Source of the DNA: a bacterium
Lineage (GTDB): Bacteria > Patescibacteriota > Gracilibacteria > BD1-5 > JAGOOR01
DNA: 48,147 bases
Reading direction: 5' to 3'
NCBI GenBank assembly: GCA_031973055.1
Contig: DALYDS010000001.1
Location: forward strand, 1 to 48,147
Numbering within the stretch: the first letter of the stretch is position 1; each line of letters starts with the position of its first letter. A program made the translations under genes and the position numbers. Shown piece by piece: positions 1-44,568 of this stretch. A model generated the notes under the pieces. The model was given only the letters and a program-made list of their open reading frames with translations. It was not told the DNA's origin and did no database searches.

Positions 1-1466
1 TGTTTTTCGTATTCAGCGTATTTGCGCTCAAAAGCAGAACCATAGATGTGGTGGAGTTCAGGAACATCTGATGGAGAGAAGAGAGTCCAGTCGCCATCTT
101 CTTGTACGCGTTTCATAAAGAGATCAGGAATCCATGCTGCTGTATTCATATCGTGTGTACGACGACGCTCATCACCAGTATTTTTGCGGAGTTCTGAGAA
201 GTCTGGGAAGTCGAGATGCCAACACTCGATGTACGCACAGAGTGCACCTTTTCGCTTACCACCTTGATTGACGGCTACAGCTGTATCGTTGGCGATTTTG
301 AGGAATGGGATAACACCCTGAGATTCACCGTTTGTTCCTTTGATTTTTGAGCCTGTTGCACGGATATTAGTCCAGTCATTTCCGAGACCTCCTGCCCATT
401 TACTGAGCTGTGCATCATCTGCGATGAGCTTGAAAATCGAATGAAGATCATCATCAACGGTTGAGAGATAACAAGAAGAGAGTTGGCTTCGTTTTGTCCC
501 TGAGTTGAAGAGTGTCGGAGTCGAGCTGACGAAATGAAGTTGTGAGAGTTGATTGTAAAATTGGATTGCCCATTTTTCTTTGTCTGCTTCTTTTTTTGCG
601 AGGCCCATCGCGACACGCATCCAGAATGCTTGTGGGAGTTCTCGACGATTTTTCTCGTGGTGGATGAAGTATCGGTCGTAGAGATTCTGAACTGAGAGGT
701 AGGTGAGGATATTGTCTCGATCTGGGTCAATTGCTTCTGCGAGCTTATCGAGATCGTAACTCATGAGGTCAGCAGAGAGATGATCTGTTTCGACGAGAAA
801 TTTTACATTGTATTTGAATGCCTCACGGTAACACTTGGTAAATCCTGCATTTTTCATATCAGAAGAACCGATGAGCTCTTTGTAGTAACTCATGAGGAAG
901 AGTTTCGCTGCAGCGTATGAGTATTGAGGATCTTGTTCGATGTAACTCTTGGCAGTCATGATAGTCGCCTGAGAAATATCACGAGATTGGATACCATCAA
1001 AAATGTTCGTATGGAAATTGCTAACCAATAAATCAATATCGATAGCCTTGTGTCCATTTGCAGCGAGCTCGAAGACACGACGAACTTTTGCCATATCAAA
1101 TGCTTCGATACGACCATCACGTTTCTGGATTTTGAGTGTCTGTTTTTCGATTTTTTCTTCGACGACTTCGTTGCGCTCTTCGATACGCTTCTGACGGTAG
1201 GTAATATAGTGTTTTGCTATTTCATAACGACCAGAACGCATGAGATGGAGCTCGACAGCATCCTGGATATCCTCCACGCTTGGGACGTATTCTGTCCCTC
1301 CAAATCGAGTCTGGAGAGCGAGAATAATCTCGGTTGTAATCTGTGGGATAAAGTTGATATCATTATGACCAATAGCGATACAAGCCTGCTCAACAGCATT
1401 TTCGATGCGAGAGCGGTCAAAAGGAACAAGCTCGTTATTGCGCTTGCGGATGGAATCGAGAGTCAT
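1..1466 (-). CDS. ribonucleotide reductase large (alpha) subunit with N-terminal ATP-cone; C-terminus lies beyond the window edge
   Basis: The minus frame is open from ATG (1464-1466) to position 1. Translation begins MTLDSIRKRNNELVPFDRSRIENAV (ATP-cone). It continues ...WAGGLGNDWTNIRATGSKIKGTNGESQGVIPFLKIANDTAVAVNQGGKRKGALCAYIECWHLD...RRRTHDMNTAAWIPDLFMKRV, which are RNR catalytic-barrel motifs. The gene is missing from the ORF track because it is edge-truncated. Class (Ia versus II) was not resolved. Confidence 0.85.
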   Translation of the reverse strand, partial: MTLDSIRKRNNELVPFDRSRIENAVEQACIAIGHNDINFIPQITTEIILALQTRFGGTEYVPSVEDIQDAVELHLMRSGRYEIAKHYITYRQKRIEERNEVVEEKIEKQTLKIQKRDGRIEAFDMAKVRRVFELAANGHKAIDIDLLVSNFHTNIFDGIQSRDISQATIMTAKSYIEQDPQYSYAAAKLFLMSYYKELIGSSDMKNAGFTKCYREAFKYNVKFLVETDHLSADLMSYDLDKLAEAIDPDRDNILTYLSVQNLYDRYFIHHEKNRRELPQAFWMRVAMGLAKKEADKEKWAIQFYNQLSQLHFVSSTPTLFNSGTKRSQLSSCYLSTVDDDLHSIFKLIADDAQLSKWAGGLGNDWTNIRATGSKIKGTNGESQGVIPFLKIANDTAVAVNQGGKRKGALCAYIECWHLDFPDFSELRKNTGDERRRTHDMNTAAWIPDLFMKRVQEDGDWTLFSPSDVPELHHIYGSAFERKYAEYEK

Positions 1467-1534
1467 ACGACAACTTTATTAGGAATTAAGGAGGAAAAAT
1501 GAAAAGTTTTTTGGTTGGTAGAAAAATCGACCAA

Positions 1535-1582
1535 ACACAATATCTTGTGTCCGATATTTATATTCAGACACTATATCTAGTC
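1535..1582 (-). promoter_or_regulatory. two NrdR-box-like 16-bp palindromes overlapping the RNR promoter
   Basis: acacaatatcttgtgt (1535-1550) and gacactatatctagtc (1567-1582) resemble the NrdR box acaCwAtATaTwgtgt. Their centres are 32 bp apart. They are interleaved with a minus-strand TTGACT (1579-1584) -N16- TATAAA (1557-1562) promoter, 69-116 nt upstream of the nrd ATG. Confidence 0.6.
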
Positions 1583-1706
1583 AAATGATTTTGTGTGAGT
1601 TTTTCAAAAACCCGCCTCAAAAGCACCTGAGTGCGAATACATTTTTTGTGCAAGCAATTTTGGGAGAAAATTTCTTGCATTTTTCCTAGGAGTTTTGGAC
1701 TAAATA

Positions 1707-2909
1707 TTATTCCGCTTCAGAATAAGCAAAACCAGCCTTTTTTATCAAAAGTGGTACTTGTTTTACGAGCGCTGCCGCTCATTCAAATTCTATACGAGCT
1801 GTCGTCGATGGACCAAAACTTTTATGGTGGACAATGTCGCCCAGATTCAGCCCTGAGGGCAACATACTTAATAATCTCAGCAATGCTCCTTCTCTATTTG
1901 GAAATATGACATCAAAAGTTGCCTTCTCTCATTTAAAATTCTCAGCTAAGCTCAGAGCTTCAGCCCACATCTCAGGTGAGACACAACGACCAGAGACGAC
2001 TGTCGCTACACTACCACGCAACTTCTGCGAAATCATATGGACTCCAGCGAGTCCGAGAGCTCCTGCTGGCTCGACAACTTGTCCTGCATCGTGGAAATCG
2101 AGCATGGTCCGTGCTACGAGTCACTCTGGAGCCAGGACAATCTCGGCTCATGATCTTCGTACAACATCAAATGTATTTTTCCCCACTTGTGCGACAGCGG
2201 CTCACCCGACAAACCTATCAACATGTTTCAGTGCAATATTTTTCCCATGATTGAGAGCGTGGGTCATACTCGGTGCCCCCTGTGGCTCTACACCGATAAT
2301 AGTCGCACTACTCCCGAGAGCATCACGAGCCATGATGCCTCCAGTCATGAGTCCACCGCCACCAGCGGGATAGACGAGATTATGTATCCTCGGATTTTCT
2401 TGGAGTATTTCTGCGGTTACCGTTGATTGACCGACGATAACATCACGATCATTGAATGGATGGACAAAGACAGCCTGATTCGATTGCTGGTATTTTTTGG
2501 CTGCCTTTTGTGCTTCATCGAAATAATCACCGACGAGTCGTACTTCGACATATTGCCCACCGAATTCTTTTACTCGACGGATTTTCATAGGATCCGTCGT
2601 ACGCGGCATATAGATAATTCATTGAGTTTCCATGAGTTTACAAGCATAAGCAACTCACTGAGCATGATTACCAGCCGATGCACAGACGACTCATCTCTTC
2701 CTCTGTTCGGGAGAGAGCTGAGATATAGCATACAGAGCTCATCGTATCTTATAAGAGCCTATCTCATTTGTATCTTCGCGTTTCCCGAGAACTATACCAT
2801 GTTGGTACGATATGAGATGCTGGAGAGATGTCAGTGGAGTATTTCCTATGCTATGCTCTCGTAATACTGACTGTGCTCGCTCTATTTCGGGACGTGTGAT
2901 AGTTTTCAT
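1707..2909 (-). CDS. ilvA: threonine ammonia-lyase (threonine dehydratase), PLP-dependent, with C-terminal ACT-like regulatory domain
   Basis: 400-codon frame in table 25 from ATG 2907-2909 to TAA 1707-1709, with 7 in-frame UGA. Motifs: GSYKIR[G]ALYAI, VVCASAGNHAQ[G]VAYAC, YPAGGGGLMTG, VEPAGALGLAG. The track shows only the 2202-2609 fragment. Confidence 0.85.
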
Positions 2910-2920
2910 AAAAAAAGAAT

Positions 2921-2946
2921 AAAAAAAACCTCTGCAGATGCAGAGG
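2921..2946 (-). terminator. intrinsic terminator/attenuator 12 nt upstream of the ilvA start codon
   Basis: The minus RNA reads CCUCUGCAUCUGCAGAGG followed by U8 (hairpin 2929-2946, U-run 2921-2928). Confidence 0.7.
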
Positions 2947-2972
2947 CGAGAAAATATGATGACAAGAAAATA

Positions 2973-3029
2973 TTATCCCTCTGCGTGATGCGAAGCGATA
3001 ATAATAATCATGTTTTGACGAGATGTCAT
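2973..3029 (-). promoter_or_regulatory. Ile-rich leader peptide ORF (MTSRQNMIIIIASHHAEG, or MIIIIASHHAEG from the second ATG at 3011)
   Basis: atg aca tct cgt caa aac atg att att att atc gct tcg cat cac GCA GAG Gga taa. The GCAGAGG just before the stop duplicates the 3' arm of the downstream terminator and can pair with its 5' arm CCUCUGC, forming an antiterminator. Confidence 0.55.
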
Positions 3030-3065
3030 AGAAAGAGTGTAATCGTCTGTAGAAAAAATCAAGAT

Positions 3066-4043
3066 TTATTCGTCAAAAATACCAGAAATACCAGCGCATA
3101 TTTCCGCGCAGCGAGTTCGTATATCATCTATCACTCCTGGATATATCACGCGAGGCTGTCTCGATGTAGCATCGAGTGCGGCCAATATTCATAGTATCTG
3201 AAGTACTACAAATCATACCACTATCTTCATCGTAGAGCTCGGAGCATTATGATATTTTCGTACACTATTTTCATCAGACATAATACGTGGACCGAACCAA
3301 TCACCCTCGGGAAGTGTTTTGTCGTCTATGGCACACCTGAGCGATTCATGAGCACAATGAAAAATCCGATCTATCTGATCTCAAAAAGGAAGCAATGCTG
3401 GCATTTCACGGATATCTGATACATGTAATGGTGTTCCTCAGAAAATCACAAATGCATCAAACAATCTCTGCCAACCGATATTTTCACATGCTTGTCCAAA
3501 TGCGTCACGTTGGGTTGGAGTCAATCACCAGACTGGATTATCGAGGAGATTTGCCATCAGGAGATTGTTCGCGTCACCCTGAAATGGTTGCAGAAGGTCG
3601 ATACAATATAACATCTTGAACTCTCGCTTATACCGCGACATATTTGCATCAAATGAATGGTACATATCCCATCGTTTTTGTAAGTCTGGAAATGAGAGAA
3701 GACTATATCCTCTCTCCTCCAACCAACCCAGAAATTCCTGAGAGAAAAATCTGGTATATGATACTATATCATGTGTATAGTTTTCTGTGTGAGTACGGTA
3801 GTATTCGGATGCTTGTCGTAGAGAAGGTAGCGATAAAAAGAAACGCTGGTGTTGCTGATACTGCGGAAAGTGACTACGAGTATTCCAACGATGTTCTAAT
3901 TCATCAAATGACAACCGTTCCATCCCGTGTTTTCGTAAAAATACAAACGTCTCTGGGAAGAATAATTCATAATCGAGGATATCATCCGCTGGTTTTTCAA
4001 AAGAAACATTCGGCCCATTATCACGTAATTCAAAATCTTCCAT
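3066..4043 (-). CDS. hypothetical protein (325 aa in table 25)
   Basis: Track ORF 3525-4043 ends at TGA. The same frame stays free of TAA/TAG for a further 152 codons to TAA 3066-3068, crossing 6 UGA. It has an internal repeat of an 'LSF.ELE.RW' type segment. I recognise no family. Confidence 0.55.
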
Positions 4044-4048
4044 GGAAA

Positions 4049-4381
4049 TTACTGTTGTTTATCCTGTGCTTCTAATTCTCTCATCTGGTCAGGAGTGACC
4101 TGAATTGCTTTTGGTACATCGTCTGGTTGTACGAGTTCGATAATTCGTTTGATGTCGTGTTCTATTTTTCCAAAATTAATATAGCTACGCTTCACTGCCA
4201 CTCCAGACAAAATCGCTGTCAAAACCAGTGCAAAAGTCATCGTCCAATAGCTCGTGCCCTGACGATTATTGTTCGAAATATGTTGCGTGCGAGTAGTGTG
4301 GTGATGTATGTGCTGTGGGGTATTGTCTGCAACTTGTTTTTGTTCCAATGCGCTTATTCTAGATTCAAACATATCATTCAT
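4049..4381 (-). CDS. hypothetical single-pass membrane protein; true N-terminus uncertain (frame open upstream to about 4555)
   Basis: ORF-track product has a hydrophobic helix YWTMTFALVLTAILSGVAV and ends at TAA 4049-4051. The upstream in-frame sequence ...RYYTLWEYLYEYAHDVIKENIQQEDENEDEDG looks coding. Confidence 0.5.
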   Translation of the reverse strand: MNDMFESRISALEQKQVADNTPQHIHHHTTRTQHISNNNRQGTSYWTMTFALVLTAILSGVAVKRSYINFGKIEHDIKRIIELVQPDDVPKAIQVTPDQMRELEAQDKQQ

Positions 4382-4938
4382 ATCGTTTCTCCCATCTTCA
4401 TCTTCATTTTCATCCTCTTGTTGAATATTTTCTTTAATAACATCATGGGCGTATTCGTAGAGATACTCCCAGAGTGTATAGTATCTTCATCACGCTCTAC
4501 CTCGAAGACTCCTCATTTTCCCGCTATCCATATATCATATAAATGTATACACCCTAGCTGAGTAAATACTGACTCAAGACGAGAAAATAATTCAGGGGTG
4601 AGTTGCACTTTTGGCTTTTTACTTGGAAGCCAATCTGTTCATAAAAAAACTTTTCCGAGGCGCACATTTGCTTCGTCTGTGTAGTGTCCTGATACAGTTA
4701 AAATGTTCGTAATCAAATCCTCAGCTTTTGGATATCCCCCGTGTATCTTGAGTTCTTCGTGCAAATCCTCGAGAGTAAGCTTATCCCACCCATTCTGTTC
4801 AAATTGGAGTCTAAAGACCTCCGGTATAAGACGAGACCAGCGCTGGACATCGGTAATGGCATCTTCTCGTAAGCCAGAATCAAGTTGTGTTGCTCCAGTA
4901 TTCATTTCGGTATTATGCAAATTTTTACTATTAGTCAA
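4354..4938 (-). CDS. hypothetical protein; 3' boundary uncertain
   Basis: Track ORF 4639-4938 ends at TGA. In table 25 the frame continues (GTDWLPSKKPKVQLTPELFSRLESVFTQLGCIHLYDIWIAGK...) to TAA 4354-4356. This overlaps the neighbouring frame by about 190 nt, and the last roughly 50 codons look non-protein-like (KMKMKMKMG). Confidence 0.4.
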
Positions 4939-4990
4939 TTCTCTTTTTAGATAAGCAGGAATCGACAGTTAGTAATTGATATATTTGTGC

Positions 4991-5605
4991 CTAATCCGTT
5001 GTCGCTACTTTGATACCAAGCACCACAAGCGCCCCTCAGAAAAATTTGTTGAAGAATCCCTGAAATCGCTCAAACACACGACGGACACGCGGGATTGTGA
5101 GAACGGTCGCGACAAAACCAAACCAGAGGAATGTCTGTACCACACACCAGACACCTATCGCGAGTTGTATCCACATCGGTGTCGATGGTGAGATGATGAG
5201 TGTAAATGCACTGAGAAAAAAGAGAGTTGCTTTGGGATTCAGAGCATTCGTGAGAAAGCCCATTTTCACCGCCTGAAATGCTGAAATCATATGCTTGTGT
5301 TTGTGGGCATCGATATGTATCGTCGTATGCTTCGCTCTCCATGACTGGATACCGATATAGATGAGATAGAGAGCTCCGAGCCATTTCATGATATTGAAGA
5401 GCATGATAGACTGTGAAATAATCACCGCAATACCAGCTATACAATAGGTCATATGAACAGCGATTCCTCCGCTAAAACCGAGAGCCGTCCAGAGTCCCAT
5501 CTTGCGTGAATACGCGAGACTATTTCGTGCACAGAGGATAAAATCTGGACCAGGACTAATGAGAGCCAGGAGATGAAGAAGTCCTACCGTGATAATAAGA
5601 GACAT
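4991..5605 (-). CDS. LysE/RhtB-family amino-acid exporter
   Basis: MSLIITVGLLHLLALISPGPDF... is a typical LysE N-terminus. The track ORF stops at TGA 5036. Table 25 adds GGALVVLGIKVATTD up to TAG 4991-4993, restoring the usual last transmembrane helix. Confidence 0.8.
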
Positions 5606-5609
5606 AAAA

Positions 5610-8600
5610 TTATTTTGTAAGACTTATGTTAACCACAAAACCTTCATCGAGTTCGACTTCTTTCGCACCTCCTTCATTTTTCATACCAATAGTACAGAGT
5701 GTTTCTTTCTCAATCATACTCTGATGTTTTTCCAGAATCTTACCAAGCATATCATTGTCTGAAGTAAGAGCGAGTTGGAGCCTGTCCATTACTTGGAATC
5801 CGAGTTCTTTTCGAGCGTCCTGAATACCACGAATCATGTCACGAGCGTAGCCCTCAAAGGTAAGTGCTTCGTCGAGCGTTGTATCGAGACCAATGACATA
5901 ACCAGCACTACCAGCAAAGGCGATTGTTGAACCAGATTTTGGTGTGTAAACTGCCTCAAATTCATCGGCTGCGAGAATAACAACTCCATTTGGTGCTTCT
6001 GGGACCGTGAGCTCAAGAGTTCCTTCTGGAGTTAAGTTTCCCTTCCCTGCTTTTGCGTCCGCGATAATCGTTTTCATCCACTGTTTTCTCTCGGTCGCTC
6101 CGATTTTTTTCGCATCTGGAGAATAGGTAATCGTGACGTAGTCTGAGACATCACCTACGCTGTGTATTTCCTTCACGTTTAATTCTTCAGCCAGCGTCTC
6201 ACGTGCACTATCATCGAGAGAGAGTGTTATCGTCGCTGCTCGAAGTGGTTGTCGGACACGGAGTTTCTCACGACCACGAATCGCGAGACCGAGATTCGTG
6301 AGATTTTGGAGGTCTGTCATTTTCTGATTTACGTCGAGATTGATGAGCTTTTTGTTTACTACTGGGAAATCCGTGAGGTGCACTGAATCCGTCGTATTCA
6401 TGAGATTCTGATAGAGATGCTCAGTGATAAATGGACAGATAGGTGCGAGGAGTTTGGTCATCGTGACGAGGACTTCATGAAGTGTCTCGTACGCACTCTT
6501 CTTATCTGCATCGAGTTCACTTCTCCAGAATCGACGACGATTACGTCGGATATACCAGTTATTGAGACCATCGAGGAAGACCATGATAGCATCACAGGTT
6601 TTCTGGAGATCATAAGCGTCCATTGAAATTCTCGTGTCTTGAATCAATGTATGGAGACGAGAAATAATCCAGGTATCGAGTTCGTGAGTTTTTGGAGTTG
6701 AATAATCCGTGAATTCCCATCCGTCGATATTGGCATAAGTGGCAAAGAAGGTGTACGAATTCCAGAGTGGAAGCAATACACGTTTGATTGATTCTTGAAT
6801 ACCTGCTTCTGAGAACGTCATATCTTCGCCCTTCATCAGCGTCCCACCCATGAGGTAAAAACGAATGGCATCTGCACCATATTTCTCAATCGTTTCACGA
6901 GGATCTGGATAATTGCCGAATGATTTACTCATCTTACGTCCATCAGTTCCGTTGATGACTCCTGTCACTGCCACATTTTTGAAGGCTGGTGATCATTTGA
7001 CCATCACACCAATCGCGTGCATCACATAAAACCACGCACGAATCTGCCCCGTGTATTCTGCGATGAAATCCGCTGGGAAACTCGCCTCCATCTTCTCTTG
7101 ATTTTCAAATGGGTAATGCACTTGCGCATACGGCATCGAAGCACTATCCATCCACACATCGAGGACTTCGGGGATGCGACGGAGTGGAGCACCGTGGAGG
7201 ATGACGCCAGTGATAAGTTGGGAATATTCGACATTGAAATGTCCCGCACCATTAATAGTCACACATTTCCCACCTGTTGCCTCTGCGACATTTTTCCCAG
7301 AAGTATGTGGAACACCGGGATCATCTTCACAATTGATAACAATGATTTCGTCGACATGATTTCGTAACTCTTCAAAAGTATAAGTAAATTGTTCTTGTTC
7401 AACTTTTACCAAAGCTCCTCGAGTACTTGCTTCGTATCGAGGTGCAACGAGAATCATTTTTTTGACATGAAGTCAGTGAGAGATGATATATTGTCTCGCT
7501 GTTTTTGCACCCATAGAGTGTGTCACCCACGTATCATAGCTCGCGATATCGAGACCGTCAAAGACCTTTTCCCAATTTTTGTAGTCTACAGCTTCGCCCT
7601 TCTCAAAAAATGGAGCGTCCATATGAATACCTTCTCTTGCAAGAACTTCTTTGGTTTTCTCAAAGAAATCAACAACATTGCCATGTTTATTATATCCATG
7701 AACGCCGAGTACTTTTTTTGGTTTTTCTGATGTTCCTGGGAGAAATACGCGGTCAATATACGGTCTATGGAGATTGATTTCTTTACCGGTATTGTTGTCG
7801 AGATAGAGCGGAATTGCTGTCGCTTTTGATGGAAGAGGTATTCCTTTTCAGAAATATTTTTTGCCAGATAAATGTTCGAGGATGAGTGCTATTTGGTCAG
7901 CATGGCTCACAACAATAACTGTTTTTCCTGGATATTTCTTTGAGATGTCAGTAATAAAATCCTTCATACGGACCAAAATATCATTGGCAGATTCACCACC
8001 TCCTGAAAATCTAAAGTCTCTATCCGTGAGATATTTATCATGTGCCTCGTCGTATTGTGACTGAATTTCTTTACGTATTTTTTGATCCATATCTCCCAAA
8101 AATACTTCTCGCAGACGATCATCATACTCTATATCGAGTTTGCAAAATTGATTGATTATTTCTGCCGTTTCCTGGGTACGTGCAAATGGAGAAGAAAAAA
8201 TAGCATCGATTGATTCTGATGTGAGACTTTCGCCAACTTTTTCCGCATCTGCCTTTCCTTTATCGGTCAGAGGAAGTCGTGGCTTATCACTTCCATCGAT
8301 AATACCGAGCGTATTTTTGAGACTCTCACCATGACGAACAAAGATAAATTTGGTTATCTGCCCAAGTGGTTTATTTCTCTGATACAATTCTTCGCGAGAA
8401 TCAATAACGACACGCTCGCTTCCATCAGTATTTTGCCATACTGGCATCGGCGTTCCCCAAAAACGAGAACGAGAGATACACCAATCTGGAGCAGATTCGA
8501 GAGATTTCAGGAATCGTCCGTGCTTGAAGTGATCTGGGAACCAATTGATAGATTCGTTCTGTGCGATGAGTTCTGATTTAATTCTCTGGATATCGATAAA

Positions 8601-10328
8601 CCATGACTTCTGTGCTTTTTGCATCAGTGGAGTATTGCTTCGAGGACAGTACGGAACGCGGTGCGTTATACCTTCTTTTTTGAAGAGTTTCCCTTCTGTC
8701 TTGAGTCGCTCCGTGATAGGATCGATAGCATCGATGTAGAGTGTACCTTGGTAGTCTGGGACTTGTGCGGTATATTTCCCTGCCTCATCAATCGCAGACG
8801 TGATGAAAATCCCCTCTTGCTTCGCGAGCTGGAAATCCACATCACCAAATTCTGGTGCTTCGTGGGCAATACCAGTACCATCAGTATCGGTGACGAAGTC
8901 GGCGTGGTAGACTTTGAAGTTTTTATCATCAATTTTCCCGACGTAATAATCAAATGGCGGATGATAATATTTACCAACCAAAAATGAACCAGGATACTCG
9001 GTAAGAACAGTAAAATTTTTCCCTTTCATGACTGTTTCAAGACGGTTTTTCGCGACCAAATAACCTTCATCTTCAATTTGCACTAACACATAGGTCAGAT
9101 CATTATGAACCGCAATTGCCATGTGCATCGGTATAGTCCATGGTGTCGTTGTCCATGCGAGCAATGATATATGTTTGAGTTCAGGTAATTTCTTCTCGAT
9201 AGCACGGAGAGCAAGCGCATCATACATCCGACCAAGCTGTTCGGTAATAATATGCTCACCATACTGGAGATAGTATCCATGAACGAGTTCTGGATCGTCT
9301 ACGATTTTCATCCACTGCATCTGAGCGTGTTTTTCTGGTTCTTGAATAGTTGGATTTGATAATAACTCAACTTCGAAATATTCCCCTTGCCACAAAGTAC
9401 GCTGAGTAAAAACTTTTCGATTTCAGAGATGTTTTCTGATGGTTATTTCGACTCAGAGTTCTTCTTTTATTTCTCTTTTGAGAGCCGTTTCTGCAGTTTC
9501 GCCTGCGTCAATTTTGCCACCAGGACACTGCCATGTATTTCAGTGTTTTTTATTCTGGAGCATGAGAACTTCACCATCAGCATTTCGGATAACAGCGAGG
9601 ACATATCGAAGATATCCGTCATCTGTATATTCAAATTTTCATCCCTGCACCTCGTCCTGTTTTGAAGTGTCTTGTGTGAGTGGAAATTTCACGGTAATAG
9701 CTGGATCCTGGACGTCCTGATAGCTGTCATCCATCGCGATTTCAAAGTTTGAAATCGGAGTCGAGAGCTTCCAAGAATACCATGAAACACGCTTTCCTTC
9801 GTAGATATAGCCTTTCTCCCAGATTTGCTTGAAAACCCACATCACTGACTCCATATAGTTCTGATCCATCGTGCGGTATGCATAGTCCATATCGACCCAT
9901 CGACCAATATGATCGATATACCATCCCCACTCAGATGAAGTGTCACGTGTATAATTATAACATTCATCGATAAATCCCTGGATTCCTCCAGCTGATTCCT
10001 CGATTTCTTTGTTTGATTCGAGTCAGAGTTTCTTCTGTACTTTTTGCTCAATAGGAAGTCCGTGACAATCCCATCCCCAGACACGTTCAACGCGCTTTCC
10101 GAGCATCGTTTGATAACGAGGCACGACGTCCTTAATTATCGAAGATAACAAGCTTCCATAATGCGGAGTTCCGGTGATAAATGGAGGACCATCGTAAAAT
10201 CGGTACGGATTCTCAGCTGACCTGGATTCGACTGACTTTTCAAACGTTTTATTTTCCTTCCAGTATTGGAGGATAGATTCTTCGAGTTTTGAGAACTCGG
10301 GTTTTCATTTGGGGAGAGAGAAGGGCAT
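5610..10328 (-). CDS. ileS: isoleucine--tRNA ligase (type 2-like core) carrying three in-frame inserted hydrolase domains; 1572 aa
   Basis: Track fragments 5610-6974, 6993-7457, 7848-9395 and 9639-9890 are all in one frame. The gaps contain only TGA stops; I located at least nine. ATG is at 10326-10328 and TAA at 5610-5612. Core motifs appear in order: PHYGS (HIGH), [87 protein letters not shown]. Confidence 0.9.
7190..7712 (-). other. alpha/beta serine-hydrolase domain (YdeN/RBBP9-like) inserted in IleS between 'LHRPYIDRV' and '[10 protein letters not shown]'
   Basis: [13 protein letters not shown]..., nucleophile elbow THSMGA (Ser at 7515-7517), NCEDDPGVP (Asp), INGAGHF (His). Confidence 0.7.
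7790..8370 (-). other. histidine-phosphatase (phosphoglycerate-mutase-like) domain inserted in IleS after 'WGTPMPVW...SREELYQRN'
   Basis: [14 protein letters not shown] (RHG motif), ...[11 protein letters not shown]..., ...[11 protein letters not shown] (second catalytic His). The normal 'LHRPYID' follows about 30 residues downstream. Confidence 0.75.
9168..9638 (-). other. Nudix hydrolase domain inserted in IleS between 'VKFPL' and '[10 protein letters not shown]'
   Basis: Complete Nudix box [22 protein letters not shown][G]V (GX5EX7REUXEEXGU). Its invariant Gly is encoded by UGA (9453-9455). Confidence 0.8.
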
Positions 10329-10495
10329 AAAAAAACACACAAAATAAACTGTGTGCTTCGGTCTCGATATTCTCGAGAAGTTACCACCGAAAGCGGTACT
10401 TGATTTATCTGCGTCACGTGCAGTGGTCGGAGGGGTCTACTTTAATTAAATTTCTTCCCTCAGCTCGTCCTGTGATAGCAGGAGTCAGTGCTGAT
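10329..10495 (-). promoter_or_regulatory. T-box-like leader of ileS (Ile specifier AUC)
   Basis: Minus-strand RNA elements:
- Antiterminator-like element GCUUUCGG-[UGGUAAC]-UUCUCGA-GAAUA-UCGAGA-CCGAAGC (10355-10394). It matches the T-box architecture helixA1 / 7-nt bulge UGGNACC / helixA2. UGGU is complementary to ACCA of tRNA-Ile (A73).
- Competing helix GAAGCACACA-guuuauuu-UGUGUGUUUU plus U-run, ending at the ATG (10329-10360).
- Short hairpin CCUG-CUAUCA-CAGG (10469-10482) presenting AUC followed by A. Confidence 0.6.
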
Positions 10496-10501
10496 AGAGG
10501 C

Positions 10502-10529
10502 AGTATACAAACTCTCGGCGTATTATCAA
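10502..10529 (-). promoter_or_regulatory. candidate sigma70-type promoter for the ileS leader
   Basis: Minus strand TTGATA (10524-10529) -N16- TATACT (10502-10507), just downstream of the stop of the preceding gene. Confidence 0.45.
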
Positions 10530-10533
10530 GTTA

Positions 10534-11028
10534 CTAAGTCACCATCAATTTTGCTAATACGTACCTATTGGTCTTCAGTGTTACTTTGAAAAAATTATCA
10601 TTAAAGAGTTTGAGGTAGTCTCCGCCAGATTTATAGACTGTAAACATTGCCTCTTCTTTTGTTTTTTTGTTTTGCTGTAATGCTGTCAAAATATGAAAAA
10701 ACTCTTCTTGTTCAGCAGCAGACCTAAAACTCTTCCTCTTTTCAGCATCAGCAAATATCTGAATAGCTCGCACCCTGAGAGTATCAACTGGAGGTTGTTC
10801 GAGTATTTTTGCAACATCTTTCTCAACTTGCCGTACCTCCTCAAATGAACCAGTTTGTGTTATCGTAGGAGCATCTGACGGAAGAGTTTGGGCAACAGCA
10901 TTATTATCTGGTGCGGCTATAAGTCCCCATCCCGCTAATAGGGCAACGGTCCCACTTGGGAGTTTCTTACTTAATTTTTGTAGGATACCTTGAGATGGCA
11001 CATTATTTGCTGGTGTATTTGTATTCAT
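10534..11028 (-). CDS. hypothetical secreted or membrane-anchored protein
   Basis: 164-aa ORF ending at TAG. N-terminal hydrophobic segment GTVALLAGWGLIAAP. No recognised family. Confidence 0.55.
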   Translation of the reverse strand: MNTNTPANNVPSQGILQKLSKKLPSGTVALLAGWGLIAAPDNNAVAQTLPSDAPTITQTGSFEEVRQVEKDVAKILEQPPVDTLRVRAIQIFADAEKRKSFRSAAEQEEFFHILTALQQNKKTKEEAMFTVYKSGGDYLKLFNDNFFKVTLKTNRYVLAKLMVT

Positions 11029-11067
11029 AGAGATATTCTACCATTCTTTTTTTCAGAAATCAAAAAT

Positions 11068-11096
11068 TTGCATACCAAATAAACACGTGGTATAAT
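11068..11096 (+). promoter_or_regulatory. promoter; its geometry implies a leaderless mRNA
   Basis: TTGCAT (11068-11073) -N17- (TGg)TATAAT (11091-11096). The ATG at 11104 lies 7 nt after the -10 element. Confidence 0.55.
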
Positions 11097-11103
11097 AGCT
11101 TAT

Positions 11104-11859
11104 ATGGGAAAAGAAAGTAATGCTAATCTCTCCGAATCTGGAAGTGCTGTAAAGGATAATGGTGAAAATATCATTACCCAGGAAACAGCACAACAAAAAC
11201 TCGAAGAAGCTACTCAAAAACTCCAGGATAATAATGATCAACAAACTGCTGCTGAAGCAGAAAGAAAACCCATAGCCGATAGATTGGAATTGAACCGTCC
11301 AAAGCTCAAAGAAACAGAACAAAAACTCGGTATCGCAGAAGAAAAGAGAAATACTCTCTCAACCGCTATACAGACCAATTCAAAGCGAATTACGGAAATT
11401 GAAGCGGAAATAACAGAGTTAACATCTAATGTTAGTACTTTATCACCAGAAGAAGTACAAGAAAAACTCAAAAAGCTGCAAACTGAAAAAGCAGATAAAG
11501 AAAGAGACAACGCAGAAAAAAAACCAATCCTTGCACAAACTGAAAAAGAAATAGCCACCCTATCCGCACAGAAAGCACAGCTATCAAAAGCAATTTCTGA
11601 CGATGAGACACTTATTAAACCTATTGAAGCAAGACTCGTTCAACTCAAAGAAGAATGGAAACCATTACAAAAAAAAGAATCACAACTAAGAGCAGAGAGT
11701 AAGGGTCTCGCAGAGGTTATAAACAAATGACAAAGAGAAGCTCAAAGAATTCAACAAATTACCCAAGATGGTCTCAAAAGGGAAGCAGAAGAGAATAGTA
11801 GAAAAGAACAAAAAATTACTCAGGCTGACTTTAATCGAGAATACGGAAGCTACATTTAG
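11104..11859 (+). CDS. coiled-coil protein, function unknown (251 aa)
   Basis: Highly charged, heptad-like sequence rich in E, K, Q and L. The track ORF ends at TGA 11728. Table 25 extends it 42 codons to TAG 11857-11859. Confidence 0.6.
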
Positions 11860-12389
11860 TCTCTCTTCTCATACCCTATTTTCCAGTCTTTCATTTCCTC
11901 ATCGAGCTCGAGAGCTCCTGGAAATACACGTTCGAGGTGATTCCAAAATGCTGTCTGGTGATGTTTGTGCACTGTATGTGTCAGTTCATGGACGATAATA
12001 TAGTCTCGAAGTTTCTTCGGGAGACGCATCAGCTCGATATTGAGACTGATGACATTGCGATGACTGCAGCTCCCCCATCGAGATTTCTGATGGCGAAATG
12101 TCACTCGTTGAAAACGAAATCCGAGTTCTTCTGCGAGCTCTGCGACTCTCCTAGGTAGAAATTTTTCTGCTCGATCTCGGAAATCACTGATTTGTTCTCT
12201 GGTTAATCTCACAAATCATGACATCTTGGACCGTTGTTTACGAATCCAGAGTGTATGAGTATCGAGGAATTTCTGGATTTGTACCTCTGTGGTTCGCATC
12301 GGAGCACGGACAAGTGCTTCACCGTTGGGATTCACACGGAGGCTCATACGACGAAGTCACGGTACATGTGTTATAGTAGTTTTTGCCAT
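11856..12389 (-). CDS. YgjP-like (DUF45/SprT-like) metal-dependent hydrolase
   Basis: HELTHTVHKHH zinc-binding motif and WGSCS motif. Table 25 extends the N-terminus through 2 UGA to ATG 12387-12389 (MAKTTITHVPGLRRMSLRVNPNGEALVRAP...). Confidence 0.7.
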
Positions 12390-16298: not shown

Positions 16299-16326
16299 TT
16301 GTAAAAAAGAAAAAATAATCTATACT
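16299..16326 (+). promoter_or_regulatory. candidate promoter for the proB leader region (leaderless geometry)
   Basis: TTGTAA (16299-16304) -N16- TATACT (16321-16326). The ATG of the first mini-ORF lies 6 nt downstream. Confidence 0.4.
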
Positions 16327-16332
16327 CAGCTC

Positions 16333-16389
16333 ATGTTCTGCAACCAAAACATCTCAGTTCCGCCATACCTCAACTTCATGAAGAGGTAG
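16333..16389 (+). promoter_or_regulatory. mini-ORF 1: MFCNQNISVPPYLNFMKR (Pro-Pro leader peptide candidate)
   Basis: atg...gtt ccg cca tac...atg AAG AGG tag. AAGAGG is complementary to CCTCTT in the 5' arm of terminator 1. Confidence 0.45.
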
Positions 16390-16414
16390 ATTATTATATA
16401 TTTTTAATTCAAAA

Positions 16415-16439
16415 TCCCTCTTCAACAGAGGGATTTTTT
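16415..16439 (+). terminator. intrinsic terminator 1 (attenuator candidate)
   Basis: TCCCTCT-tcaac-AGAGGGA followed by TTTTTT. Confidence 0.75.
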
Positions 16440-16445
16440 ATTGCT

Positions 16446-16508
16446 ATGAATCATATTTTTCAAATCACATTACCCGTTCCTCCGCTTCTCTTCTCTCCCA
16501 AGGGGTAG
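16446..16508 (+). promoter_or_regulatory. mini-ORF 2: MNHIFQITLPVPPLLFSPKG (Pro-rich leader peptide candidate)
   Basis: atg...tta ccc gtt cct ccg ctt...tct ccC AAG GGG tag. CAAGGGG can pair, with one bulge, with CCCTCTTG, the 5' arm of terminator 2. Confidence 0.45.
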
Positions 16509-16535
16509 CTTTTAAGTACTCAATATTCTTTTCAG

Positions 16536-16567
16536 CCCTCTTGTTACACAAGAGGGTTTTTATTTTT
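16536..16567 (+). terminator. intrinsic terminator 2, 14 nt upstream of proB (attenuator candidate)
   Basis: CCCTCTTG-ttaca-CAAGAGGG followed by TTTTTATTTTTT. Confidence 0.75.
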
Positions 16568-16580
16568 TACACAACTATTT

Positions 16581-17336
16581 ATGAACAAAACTATTATCGT
16601 CAAAGTCGGCACAGAATCTCTCGCAAATTTTCACACGAGCGTAAAAGTAGGCAATATGGTCAGAGATATAGCTCGACTTATGCGAGAAAAAATCCGCGTC
16701 GTACTGATATCTTCTGGAGCAGTCGGATGTGGCAAGGAAATACTCTGATGAGACAAAAATAACCAAGTATATGCTAGTGTGGGACAACCAGTGCTGATGG
16801 GGCGTTATGCAGAGAAATTTCAAAAGCGAAAAATCGTCACAGCGCAAATTCTCCCAACTCATGCTACGCTCGAAGATATAGAGAGTCATCGAACTCAATT
16901 TATACGCACGGTCAACGATATTATCGAGGCTGGAGTACTCCCAATTATCAACGAAAACGATGCACTCTCGACCGCAGAAATGCAAGCCCTAGGAAGAGGC
17001 GCTGATAACGATCAAAATGCTCTCCTCATAGCCCGTATACTCGGAGCAACAGACATCATCCTCCTTACAAATACTAACGGTGTTTATCGTGATAAAAATG
17101 ATAGTTCTTCGAGAATAAAAATACTCAGAGCTAAAACAATTACCGACGAATGGATACATCGAGTTTGTGGGGGGAAATCGGCGAGCTGAACTGGTGGCAT
17201 GCAGTCAAAAGTAATCATTGGAAGAGAATTTGCGAAAAATGGTGGAGTGACACATGTGTGTGATGGTATACATTCGACGGTCTACGAGCACGCTCTGGGG
17301 AGAGATATTCACGGTGGAACTCATATAAAAGTATAA
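16581..17336 (+). CDS. proB: glutamate 5-kinase (short form, no PUA domain)
   Basis: MNKTIIVKVGTESL..., ISSGAVGCGKEIL[G][G], ASVGQPVLMGRY, INENDALST, S[G]TGGMQSKV. 251 aa with 3 in-frame UGA. TAA at 17334-17336. Confidence 0.85.
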
Positions 17337-29386: not shown

Positions 29387-30101
29387 TCAGTGCAACTCCA
29401 GTATAGAGAAAAATACTCACGACATGTGGACCCCAGAAAAAATAGGGCTCCGCTCCAACCAATCGTCCGATGACGAGCTCGTCATAAAAAAGTCGAACAT
29501 GATATCGCAACACTGAGAATATCAGGAGTATCATAACAATGGCCGTTAACACCAAGAAAAAGACTACAGCGTGTACTGTGCGCTCTATAGTGTTGAGAGA
29601 TGACTCAAATGATCGGAGATGCTGACGTACAGAATCAATCGATGATGTCTGTTCAAATATGTCACGATACTCGAGCACCCGTATCCACAAACGCTCTATA
29701 TCTGTACCGTAGAGAGGAACCATCAGTGTATCAGGGAGAGGATTCTCACCTGACAAAACAGAGAGTATGGAAGAATCGCGCTGTATCTGTGCGTCGAGTG
29801 CTACTTCTTTGGAAATAGTCGTTACCTGTGTCGATGTGATTTTGTCTGTTGTGAGACTCTCTATAAAAGCATTTACCCGAGGACTCTCGAGGCTAATTTG
29901 TTTTTGGAGGAAAAGAGGGTACGTAAATTTCTCTGATACTTGATTTCGTTGTGAACGAAGAAACCCCACCATAGATATACCAATAAAAATCGTGAGGAAT
30001 AATACCGTCAAAATACCCATAATACCGAGAGAGGCATTTCTCATGCGGGTCATGTGTGTCCAAGATGTTCGGAGTATGCAACCAATCATAACGCTCAGCA
30101 T
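29343..30101 (-). CDS. ftsX: FtsX-like permease (cell-division ABC transporter permease family)
   Basis: N-terminal transmembrane helix, a large extracytoplasmic loop and three C-terminal transmembrane helices. ...LVIGRLVGAEPYFFWGPHVV... resembles FtsX 'MrLVGAt..fIr.PF'. Confidence 0.6.
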   Translation of the reverse strand: MLSVMIGCILRTSWTHMTRMRNASLGIMGILTVLFLTIFIGISMVGFLRSQRNQVSEKFTYPLFLQKQISLESPRVNAFIESLTTDKITSTQVTTISKEVALDAQIQRDSSILSVLSGENPLPDTLMVPLYGTDIERLWIRVLEYRDIFEQTSSIDSVRQHLRSFESSLNTIERTVHAVVFFLVLTAIVMILLIFSVLRYHVRLFYDELVIGRLVGAEPYFFWGPHVVSIFLYTGVALITSGMLFLFLQWFF

Positions 30102-30123: not shown

Positions 30124-30147
30124 AAAAAATGACCCCAAAAGGGTCAT
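30124..30147 (-). terminator. intrinsic terminator after rpmA
   Basis: Minus RNA AUGACCC-uuuug-GGGUCAU followed by UUUUUU. Confidence 0.75.
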
Positions 30148-43500: not shown

Positions 43501-44450
43501 AGCCATGCACCTTTTTTTGGTTTGATTTTCGCACTGTAGACACCAGCATCTACTTCAAAAGCGATACCGTCGGCCTTGATAATTTGATGAACGACAACTC
43601 GTTCAACTCCATTCACGATAAATGTTCCCTTCTCTGTCATGAGAGGTATACCGCCCATAAATACTGTATCTTCTTTAATTTCACCTGTTTCCTTATTCAA
43701 CATTTGGAGTTTGACACGGAGGTATGATTCGTAGTTGAGATTTTTTCGACGACATTCTTTGCTCGTGTAACGAGGTGCCTCGAGCTCCATACCTTTGAAG
43801 TGGATTTCTACACGCTCTTCAGAAAAGTCTGAAATAGGAAACACACTCTCGAGAGCCTCATTAATACCGTGCTCAATAAATGATCGGTAAGAATCAAGCT
43901 GTGCTGCGATAAGCTCAGGCATTTCGATAATAGCACGGTCTTCTGTAAAAAAGTGACGTCCAGATCGGACATAGAGAGCACCGTGTGTTGCTTTTTCGAG
44001 ACGTGGAGTATGTGTAATGGCTGGCACTGGAGAGAGTGAGAGTTGTTTGCGAGGCTCTTTTACTTTTTTTACGACTTCTGGTTTTTTAGATTTTTTTGGA
44101 GCTGGAGTTATTTTTTCTGCTTTTTCCGCAATTACTTTCTTAGGAGTCACCTTTTTTGCGACTTCTTTTTTCTTTGGAGCTTCTTTTTTTGGAGCTGGCT
44201 TTTTTTTGGAGTTCACAGGAGATTTTTTAGGAGATTTAGTTGATTTTGAGTTTACCTTTTTTGCGACTTCTTTTTTCTTTGGAGTTGGCTTCTTTGGGAG
44301 AACCTTCTTTACTGGTTTTTTTGCAATTACTTTCTTAGGAGTCACCTTTTTTGCGACTTCTTTTTTCTTTGGAGTTGGTTTCTTCACAACCTTTGCAGAC
44401 ACTTTACCTCCTGCTTTCTTGGCAGGCTTGGTGAGTTTTTTCGCATTCAT
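40575..44450 (-). CDS. rpoB: DNA-directed RNA polymerase subunit beta with a roughly 175-aa Lys-rich repetitive N-terminal extension (1291 aa)
   Basis: Track fragments 40575-41375 and 41697-44477 are in one frame. The junction RETKL[G][11 protein letters not shown] aligns with E. coli RDTKLGPEEIT. Also [14 protein letters not shown] and [11 protein letters not shown]-type [22 protein letters not shown]. Start taken at ATG 44448-44450 ([12 protein letters not shown]...). Confidence 0.95.
44128..44384 (-). repeat. in-frame direct DNA repeats encoding the [16 protein letters not shown] units of the RpoB N-terminal extension
   Basis: An identical 52-nt unit gcaattactttcttaggagtcaccttttttgcgacttcttttttctttggag occurs at 44128-44179 and 44323-44374. 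A third, partial copy (accttttttgcgacttcttttttctttggagttgg) is at 44254-44288. Confidence 0.85.
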
Positions 44451-44568
44451 AACGTAAAAAAAGGAGATAAAAGACACAGAAAAACCGCATACTTGCTATG
44501 CGATAAACACGGACGAGTTATCTAGTTGGTTCGTGCACGAAAATCGGGATATATGTGATATGCGGAGG

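Follow-up and report, generated by a model that had tools for sequence, protein, structure and literature searches.

Isoleucine codons and an intrinsic terminator upstream of ilvA as a probable leader-peptide attenuator in a recoded Gracilibacterium

We analyzed a 48,147-nt stretch of DNA (hereafter the window; positions 1 to 48,147 of contig DALYDS010000001.1, GenBank assembly GCA_031973055.1) from a bacterium placed in the Gracilibacteria (BD1-5; JAGOOR01), focusing on the leader region of its threonine ammonia-lyase gene, ilvA. The genes on the minus strand run in the order isoleucyl-tRNA synthetase (IleRS), a LysE-family exporter of the RhtB/RhtC-like type, hypothetical genes, the leader, ilvA, and the large subunit of ribonucleotide reductase (RNR). 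An earlier reading of the letters alone, which we call the original prediction, had proposed a leader-peptide attenuator at this site. All coordinates given here are window positions, and every element of the ilvA leader is read on the minus strand and lies where the original prediction had placed it.

The ilvA gene (1707..2909, minus strand) is the gene that the leader would regulate and encodes a 400-aa threonine ammonia-lyase under genetic code 25, in which TGA specifies glycine. Its in-frame TGA codons sit at conserved glycines (e.g., SYKIR-G-A and AGNHAQ-G-VA), which confirms that the genome uses code 25, the Gracilibacteria code; homologues of another window protein carry the annotation "Candidatus Gracilibacteria bacterium," consistent with this assignment. 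The IlvA protein matched the Pfam family PALP at 1.3e-65, and its best NCBIfam matches were the IlvA short-form models, below their cut-offs and with the C-terminal domain unmatched. That domain is divergent, and a fragment of it is labelled by JGI as "C-terminal regulatory domain of Threonine dehydratase."

An intergenic region of 156 nt on the minus strand separates the ilvA ATG at 2909 from the stop, at 3066, of an upstream gene for a 325-aa hypothetical protein (3066..4043, minus strand). Three nucleotides past that stop codon begins a -35-like hexamer, TTGATT (3057..3062), followed after a 15-nt spacer (TTGATT-N15-TACACT) by a -10-like hexamer, TACACT (3036..3041). The latter lies 6 nt before the first ATG of a mini-ORF, as the original prediction had noted; the TTGATT hexamer at 15-nt spacing is an addition of our analysis. 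The mini-ORF (2973..3029) consists of 18 codons plus TAA (ATG ACA TCT CGT CAA AAC ATG ATT ATT ATT ATC GCT TCG CAT CAC GCA GAG GGA TAA) and would encode MTSRQNMIIIIASHHAEG. Its first ATG occupies 3029-3027 and a second in-frame ATG 3011-3009; four consecutive Ile codons, ATT ATT ATT ATC, follow at 2997..3008, and the TAA stop lies at 2975-2973. The last three sense codons, GCA GAG GGA, contain the heptamer GCAGAGG (2978..2984), which we designate region 2. A spacer of 26 nt (2972-2947) then leads from the stop codon to an intrinsic terminator hairpin, CCTCTGC-ATCT-GCAGAGG (2929..2946; regions 3 and 4), and its U-tract of T8 (2921..2928). Between the T8 and the ilvA ATG there are 11 nt, the U-rich linker ATTCTTTTTTT (2910..2920), which has no Shine-Dalgarno motif.

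The heptamer GCAGAGG is thus present twice, at the end of the coding part of the mini-ORF and in the 3' arm of the terminator hairpin, and the first copy, being exact, can serve as the antiterminator partner of CCUCUGC in the manner that the original prediction had proposed. The terminator had been drawn with an 8-bp stem and a 2-nt loop; it instead has a stem of 7 bp plus a closing G.U pair, and thus 7-8 bp, with a 4-nt loop. A further, optional hairpin (1:2; 2971..3003, minus strand) pairs UAUUAUC of the Ile-codon region with GAUAAUA around the stop codon.

Several properties set this region apart within the window. Four consecutive Ile residues occurred in 7 of the 680 window mini-ORFs and in none of the 47 long ORFs, the ilvA-leader hairpin ranked first among terminator-like sites in a scan of the first 12 kb, and the 167-nt leader folded with a z score of -3.8. 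An Rfam scan of positions 1-12000 at E<=1 gave no match of the ilvA leader to a leader, T-box, or riboswitch family; the sole match was OmrA-B on the terminator, which was sub-threshold (24.9 bits against a gathering score of 40, E = 0.36). Another reading, in which a dimeric repressor would bind the 18-bp palindrome as an operator in the DNA, was rejected as the principal explanation, given the U-tract and the resemblance to the other terminators of the genome, which follow a CCCTCT.../...AGAGGG pattern with a T-run. A 29-codon version of the mini-ORF initiated at TTG (2973-3062) was likewise unsupported, as that TTG belongs to the -35 hexamer TTGATT.

Leaderless starts appear to be frequent in this genome. 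TAnnnT lay 6 nt before the ATG at 23% of the 47 window gene starts versus 2% of 1849 background ATGs, and 7 nt before it at 10.6% of gene starts versus 2.3% of the background. TAnnnT-N6-ATG was enriched about tenfold at real gene starts and was the commonest start architecture in the genome, and we detected no evident Shine-Dalgarno motifs upstream of the window genes (47 ORF starts). These patterns suggest that leaderless mRNAs may be widespread in this Gracilibacterium. Because its -10 box lies 6 nt upstream of the ATG, the mini-ORF transcript is predicted to start at or next to the A of that ATG, and the leader transcript is probably leaderless. Counted together, about one-third of the window genes have TAnnnT 6-7 nt upstream of the ATG, in many cases with a pyrimidine-rich 6-mer (such as atctct, ctccc, or ccctct) after it.

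Relatives were collected by several routes. A search of 5.8 billion proteins yielded three clusters near the window IlvA (97, 73, and 54% identity), the remainder being Bacteroidota-type IlvA at <=47%. Further loci came from the genomic contexts of these three clusters, from a metagenome match (L088), and from a search with the lineage-specific C-terminal IlvA domain, which recovered ilvA gene fragments broken at TGA. L088 was the one new member found in the metagenome scan, whose 72 other loci were distant PALP enzymes without leader motifs. Among the matches listed from a scan of a genome collection with the IlvA alignment, in which the back-translated patterns took Gly as GGN, we found Bacteroidota-, Firmicutes-, and Proteobacteria-type IlvA at <=44% and no recoded relative. 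Together with the window, nine further metagenomic and genomic loci gave ten distinct leaders from at least eight lineages, with IlvA proteins 57-99% identical to that of the window. Synteny (IleRS ... ilvA-RNR) holds for all ten loci, one of which is part of a 1.05-Mb chromosome, OZ246415.1. The comparison of orthologous ilvA upstream regions that the original prediction had envisaged showed both the Ile run and the alternative pairing to be kept in all ten loci.

The peptide MTSRQNMIIIIASHHAEG is shared by the window and L001, whereas the predicted peptides of the other loci vary: MNLSQNMIIIIASHHAEG (L002), MTTRQNMIIIIASHHAEG (L004), MTSRHNMIIIIASHHAEG (L088), MILRQNMIIIIASHHAEG (L168), MTSRHNMIIITSLHAEG (L170), MASCHNIIIIIASLHAEG (L172), MTLRQNMIIIIASLHAEG (L173), and MTSRHNNIIIITSPSAEG (L005). 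The start, frame, and stop of the mini-ORF were kept in all ten leaders at a length of 17-18 codons. Of the two start codons in the original prediction, the first was conserved, and the alternative second ATG was not (AAC in L005, ATC in L172), which places the beginning of the peptide at the first ATG. The sole indel within the mini-ORF is an in-frame deletion of 3 nt (L170), while the non-coding spacer and tail have indels of 1-2 nt. Each of the ten leaders has three to five consecutive Ile codons, in agreement with the four originally described for the window, and the changes in this run keep or add Ile: ATC became ATT in L173, ATG became ATC in L172 to give a fifth Ile, and one ATT was lost in L170.

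The geometry of the leader is similarly constrained. TTGAWT-N15-TAnnnT-N6-ATG precedes the mini-ORF in 10/10 leaders, with TACACT, TATAAT, TACAAT, or TATCAT as the -10 hexamer and a variable N15 sequence. Every leader has 12 nt between the last Ile codon and GCAGAGG, and 25-27 nt separate the mini-ORF stop from the terminator. GCAGAGG of region 2 is invariant. The terminator has a GC-rich stem of 7-8 bp, a loop of 3-4 nt (ATCT, ATCC, ATCA, TCAC, or ATC), and a U-tract of T6-T8 in all ten leaders, and the linker to ilvA measures 10-14 nt and varies in sequence. The fixed parts are thus the ATG, the Ile run, GCAGAGGG-R-TAA, the stem, and the U-tract; the variable parts are codons 2-7 and 12-15, the spacer after the stop codon, the terminator loop, and the linker to ilvA. 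The last mini-ORF codon shows a synonymous change among relatives, from GGA to GGG. Variation therefore falls where a leader-peptide attenuator model would allow it, and this distribution fits such a model.

We compared leader conservation with that of the neighboring sequences. Between the window and L004, the leader was 95% identical, compared with 62-85% at third positions of identical amino acids in four neighboring genes. Between the window and L005, the leader was 82% identical, and third positions at identical amino acids were 45-68% identical. At this depth, the 150 nt upstream of the leader promoter (53%) and the ilvA-RNR spacer (51%) were at the random level, as judged by a shuffle control with a mean of 59% and a maximum of 67%. 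A caution applies to the closer comparison, as the ilvA-RNR spacer was likewise 94% identical between the window and L004, and high non-coding identity is not specific to the leader at that depth. On these alignments, the leader is conserved beyond what shared ancestry accounts for.

To represent the cotranscriptional decision, we folded the nascent RNA up to the terminator loop, without the 3' arm, while masking a ribosome footprint of 28-29 nt (A-site -15 to +13). With the ribosomal A site at the stop codon, the probability of the GCAGAGG:CCUCUGC antiterminator was 0.00 in the ten leaders; when either the first or the last Ile codon occupied the A site, it was 0.94-1.00. The constrained folding therefore bore out the switch logic of the original prediction. 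Ribosome-free leaders gave probabilities of 0.05-0.98. The two alternatives are comparable in free energy, with dG values of -10.7 to -11.7 kcal/mol for the antiterminator (2:3) and -11.5 to -12.4 kcal/mol for the terminator. The 1:2 hairpin was present in the minimum free energy fold and, independently, in the RNAalifold consensus, and it hides GCAGAGG in most ribosome-free leaders. What the analysis shows directly is that the elements exist, that their sequence and spacing are conserved, and that the states are thermodynamically feasible.

In our assessment, these elements most likely form a ribosome-mediated (leader-peptide) attenuator, through which transcription of ilvA would depend on how much charged tRNA-Ile is available. 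Four lines of evidence support this interpretation: the device is conserved in ten loci, its variation is informative, its geometry is fixed, and constrained folding agrees with it. From the same data we infer where transcription starts, that the ORF is translated, that transcripts terminate in vivo, and that the leader responds to isoleucine. In the proposed mechanism, transcription would begin about 7 nt past the -10 box of the TTGATT-N15-TACACT promoter, with RNA starting at or next to the AUG of the 18-codon ORF, and a ribosome would translate the mini-ORF while RNA polymerase proceeds toward the terminator about 55-109 nt downstream. When Ile-tRNA is ample, the ribosome would reach the UAA, and its footprint would cover GCAGAGG; since the final sense codons contain region 2, its masking by a ribosome at the stop would be direct. 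CCUCUGC would then pair with the downstream GCAGAGG, forming the terminator and ending transcription at the U-tract. When Ile-tRNA is scarce, the ribosome would stall on one of the three to five Ile codons with its leading edge just short of GCAGAGG, which could then pair with CCUCUGC as soon as the latter is made, blocking the terminator and allowing the polymerase to enter ilvA. Translation of ilvA would start from the U-rich, Shine-Dalgarno-less site 11 nt beyond the U-tract. If the leader is not translated, the hairpin between the Ile and stop regions would, in most lineages, hide GCAGAGG and favor termination.

A second locus in the window has the same design. Upstream of a ProB-like glutamate-5-kinase gene (16581-17336, plus strand) lie two tandem leader units (16321-16580, plus strand). 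Unit 1 has TATACT-N6-ATG (ATG at 16333), a mini-ORF encoding MFCNQNISVPPYLNFMKR whose coding end reads GAAGAGG-TAG, and a terminator, TCCCTCT-TCAAC-AGAGGGA followed by T6 (16415-16433). Unit 2 starts at an ATG at 16446, 6 nt past the U-tract of unit 1, and has a mini-ORF encoding MNHIFQITLPVPPLLFSPKG with the coding end CAAGGGG-TAG and a terminator, CCCTCTTGT-TAC-ACAAGAGGG (16536-16556), that ends about 12 nt before the gene. In both units the last mini-ORF codons copy the 3' arm of the following terminator. Relatives with 71, 60, 56, and 46% protein identity (L161, L163, L164, and L166) keep one or two units with VPP/PVP codons, and L166 uses different bases (CGACUCUCG:CGAGAGUCG) to pair its ORF end with the terminator arm. 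In the footprint test, a ribosome at the stop codon freed the terminator arm, and with a ribosome on the upstream Pro codons the antiterminator formed; this result covers five of the eight units, as window_u1, L163_u1, and L164_u1 carry no information. As at ilvA, the AUG of unit 2 stands shortly after a U-tract, which implies that translation in this genome can begin at such a site. Two devices of the same design, each with codons for the textbook end product of the pathway of its enzyme (Ile for IlvA, Pro for ProB), argue strongly for real amino-acid-sensing attenuators. We know of no described proline leader-peptide attenuator.

Several points weigh against the proposed Ile-responsive attenuator. 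Equilibrium folding of the full leader kept the terminator in every ribosome-mask state, so that the switch must be kinetic. Its timing, through pausing and transcription-translation coupling on a leaderless RNA, is assumed in our mechanism; a kinetic decision is usual for attenuators. The strength of the 1:2 hairpin is not conserved, and L172 and L173, in which it is weak, would default to read-through when no ribosome is present; we therefore treat this hairpin as optional. The terminator and antiterminator stems are invariant and thus provide essentially no covariation support. As counted on alignments of 6 and 10 sequences, of which the MAFFT version mis-registers the L172 terminator, both key helices were 100% paired, the count for the 2:3 helix GCAGAGG:CCUCUGC covering six leaders. 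At its closing pair the terminator has A-U or G.U, and the replacement of this pair by C-G in L172 is the sole change on both sides in the key helices; the 1:2 helix has one compensatory pair, which was not significant (77 of 500 shuffles scored as high). Since the stems are almost invariant, the structural support consists of conservation and a mutually exclusive design rather than covariation. The nucleotide-level invariance of ATTATTAT would also suit a -10 box. Finally, we saw no other ilv gene in the window or the flanks that were read, and Gracilibacteria are reported to lack almost all amino-acid synthesis (PMC6851277), which would leave an Ile-specific control of ilvA without an evident physiological sense.

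Among alternative explanations, the one that survives best, which we nevertheless regard as unlikely, is that the hairpin terminates the upstream operon (ileS, lysE, and the hypothetical genes) and that ilvA is transcribed from a leaderless promoter of its own, TATTCT-N6-ATG, the mini-ORF being incidental or a separate gene. The ilvA gene formally has the TAnnnT-N6-ATG arrangement that is commonest in the genome, the upstream gene ending at 3066 has no terminator of its own before the ilvA-leader hairpin, and terminators abutting the next start codon exist elsewhere in the window, such as that at 30146-30130 before the gene at 30101. The original prediction that there is no room for a promoter between the terminator and ilvA was in this respect too strict, as the T-run together with the following ATTCT forms a TATTCT box 6 nt before the ATG. 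However, the region is so T-rich that a single A suffices to make such a box. No TTG -35 accompanies the box at spacings of 15 to 18, and the box is absent in L004, L168, L172, and L173 and thus kept in only 6/10 loci; for these reasons read-through into ilvA, although not forced, remains the better reading. A separate ilvA promoter would also give no reason for the conservation of the ORF frame, the run of Ile codons, the constant spacing of 12 nt, or the duplicated GCAGAGG. Furthermore, the leader features travel with ilvA although the upstream gene changes, from the 325-aa hypothetical protein in the window to an S-methyltransferase in L004 and L173 and a 166-aa protein in L005.

Very unlikely, in our assessment, is a second alternative in which the Ile codons are the -10 element of an internal promoter, ATGACA-N17-TATTAT, with transcription starting near 2994, the ORF lying outside the RNA, and the switch being set by a protein, a small RNA, or a metabolite. 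A consensus scan scored ATGACA-17-TATTAT at 10/12, all ten leaders contain TATTAT, and the Ile codons hardly vary, their third positions included. The would-be -35 element, however, decays to ATGAAT, ATGATT, or ATGGCT in relatives, with only its ATG kept. An internal promoter also would not account for the conserved upstream TTGAWT-N15-TAnnnT-N6 promoter, the in-frame deletion of 3 nt, the M-to-I replacement by which the Ile run becomes longer, or the constant position of the stop codon immediately behind GCAGAGG, and the region has no Rfam family match. Least credible is a functional micropeptide that lies next to the terminator by coincidence, since the mini-ORF, although conserved with a start, a stop, and a leaderless-type promoter, encodes only 17-18 residues with no features of a stable peptide and changes residues freely outside the Ile run and C-terminal AEG (T/N/I/A, S/L/T, R/S/C, Q/H, M/N/I, A/T, H/L/P, and H/S). 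That AEG corresponds to the RNA element GCAGAGG, and its conservation is more readily attributed to the nucleotides, which pair with the terminator arm.

We retain the attenuator as the explanation of the ilvA leader and turn to its gene context. The original prediction had IlvA committing threonine to isoleucine synthesis. An IlvA-type enzyme is indeed encoded, but no second ilv gene was found in the 48-kb window or in the flanks that were read, and a closed Gracilibacteria genome has been reported to be nearly devoid of amino-acid synthesis and to use EC 4.3.1.19 for the conversion of serine to pyruvate (PMC6851277). A literature search on Ile or Thr metabolism in Gracilibacteria and Absconditabacteria returned nothing specific. 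These points limit interpretation of why ilvA is regulated, not how.

Other features of the locus also concern threonine and isoleucine. The LysE-family protein (4991-5605, minus strand) is nearest to the RhtB/RhtC homoserine/threonine exporters, below curated cut-offs, and its gene shares synteny with ileS and ilvA across the window, L001, L002, L004, and L168, giving the locus a threonine/isoleucine theme. IleRS (5610-10328, minus strand; 1572 aa) has NUDIX and histidine-phosphatase (His_Phos_1) domains inserted within the synthetase. A precomputed Pfam list of L004 adds a Ser_hydrolase insertion, and the insertions are kept in relatives of 1544-1583 aa (L004, L005, and L168). IlvA evolves faster than its neighbors, with 75% amino-acid identity between the window and L004 compared with 98-99% for LysE and the reductase. 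IlvA of this type is confined to a few recoded lineages, with other homologues at <=47% identity and the named ones mostly from Bacteroidota; this restricted distribution may reflect horizontal acquisition by one Gracilibacteria subclade.

The ileS gene is itself preceded by a leader of about 170 nt (window 10329-10529, minus strand; L005 150-396) with the promoter TTGATA-N16-TATACT. This leader has no ATG-initiated ORF, and its final hairpin, CACACA-N8-TGTGTG plus T7, runs right up to the ileS ATG. The most distant relative has a nearly identical 3' two-thirds, with AAATCAAGTACCGCTTTCGGTGGTAAC and the terminator included, and its ileS leader also has inserted short tandem repeats. At thresholds up to E<=10, neither an Rfam family nor a T-box matched the ileS leader, which could represent an unclassified leader responsive to Ile or to tRNA. 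On the other side of ilvA, the 240-nt ilvA-reductase spacer (1467-1706, minus strand) contains an 11-bp hairpin (1555-1530) and may be a regulatory leader of the reductase gene. Elsewhere on the minus strand, terminator hairpins lie at 30130-30146, 23 nt before the gene at 30101, and at 44486-44502, about 35 nt before rpoB at 44450. The position of the latter resembles that of the rplL-rpoB attenuator known in E. coli.

Almost nothing is known of gene regulation in the Patescibacteria, or Candidate Phyla Radiation (CPR), and a 2024 perspective on these bacteria leaves attenuation unmentioned. Our literature search, of incomplete coverage, found nothing linking leader-peptide attenuation to Gracilibacteria, Patescibacteria, or CPR, which is consistent with the original statement that such attenuation is undescribed for CPR lineages. 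The ilvA leader, as predicted from sequence, is a first well-supported regulatory RNA device for this barely understood recoded lineage. A conserved attenuator would imply that a code-25 Gracilibacterium couples transcription to translation, translates leaderless mRNAs efficiently, and monitors the charging of individual tRNAs. A more speculative extension, which we offer tentatively, is that Gracilibacteria run a family of leaderless leader-peptide attenuators (Ile-ilvA, tandem Pro-ProB, and the unclassified terminator-ending ileS leader) by which these symbionts, regarded as lacking biosynthesis, would hold selected first-step amino-acid enzymes under end-product-specific control. If so, either cryptic Ile and Pro synthesis would persist, or 2-oxobutyrate, the product of IlvA, would feed a non-canonical or host-shared route governed by Ile-tRNA charging. 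The puzzle of a threonine deaminase under Ile-specific control in a lineage described as being without amino-acid biosynthesis is testable through inspection of whole genomes (e.g., OZ246415.1) and through the compact RNA element itself, which is small and well defined and could be used in reporters or as a regulatory part in bacteria that are hard to manipulate.

T-box riboswitches are the usual control of ileS and ilv genes in Firmicutes. As with them, the charging state of one particular tRNA would decide whether the ilvA leader forms its terminator or its antiterminator; unlike them, the leader would sense that state via codon translation rather than direct tRNA binding, and permissive thresholds gave no T-box match in the ilvA or the ileS leader. 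In E. coli, ilvA is the last gene of ilvGMEDA, which has a multivalent Ile/Leu/Val leader. In the well-established enterobacterial trp, leu, his, thr, ilvGMEDA, and ilvBN leaders (see also PMC1183508), the position of the ribosome picks the 2:3 antiterminator or the 3:4 terminator, and the same choice is proposed here. The untranslated enterobacterial leader can also form a 1:2 hairpin, and the four consecutive regulatory codons of the window resemble the leu leader. Enterobacterial leaders differ in having Shine-Dalgarno sites, 5' untranslated regions, and greater length. The mini-ORF of the ilvA leader, by contrast, has region 2 built into its final sense codons, and in some lineages the leader has only a weak 1:2 element or could do without it.

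Two further systems involve leaderless or nearly leaderless short ORFs. The mycobacterial polycysteine upstream ORFs (uORFs) are reported to be leaderless short ORFs with a run of codons for a single amino acid that act as attenuators upstream of metabolism genes for that amino acid (bioRxiv 10.1101/834739), but they belong to another phylum, involve another amino acid, and are reported to control operonic genes. In Corynebacterium glutamicum, which provides the closest documented case, the ilvBNC operon has a 15-residue leader peptide, IlvL (MTIIRLVVVTARRLP), whose transcript starts one nucleotide before the start codon and has no ribosome-binding site (PMC11857589), and uORF attenuation of ilvB genes is documented, including an ilvB-II uORF motif (PMC10272879). 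Both ilvBNC and the ilvA leader described here have a short ORF of about 15-18 codons with branched-chain amino-acid codons and no ribosome-binding site, (near-)leaderless in C. glutamicum (PMC11857589; PMC10272879) and predicted to be so here, as well as alternative hairpins and an intrinsic terminator before an ilv gene. The two show no sequence similarity, and the ilvA leader has no Rfam match. The present leader precedes a solitary ilvA, in a code-25 Gracilibacterium, and has Ile codons only (three to five in a row) instead of mixed Ile/Val/Leu codons; its AUG lies 120 nt from the gene start, compared with 292 nt in C. glutamicum, and its terminator ends 11 nt before the gene ATG. The proposed mechanism is of the classical trp/leu/his/thr/ilv leader type, and it is the host lineage, the compactness, the exclusive use of Ile codons, and the solitary ilvA that set this leader apart.

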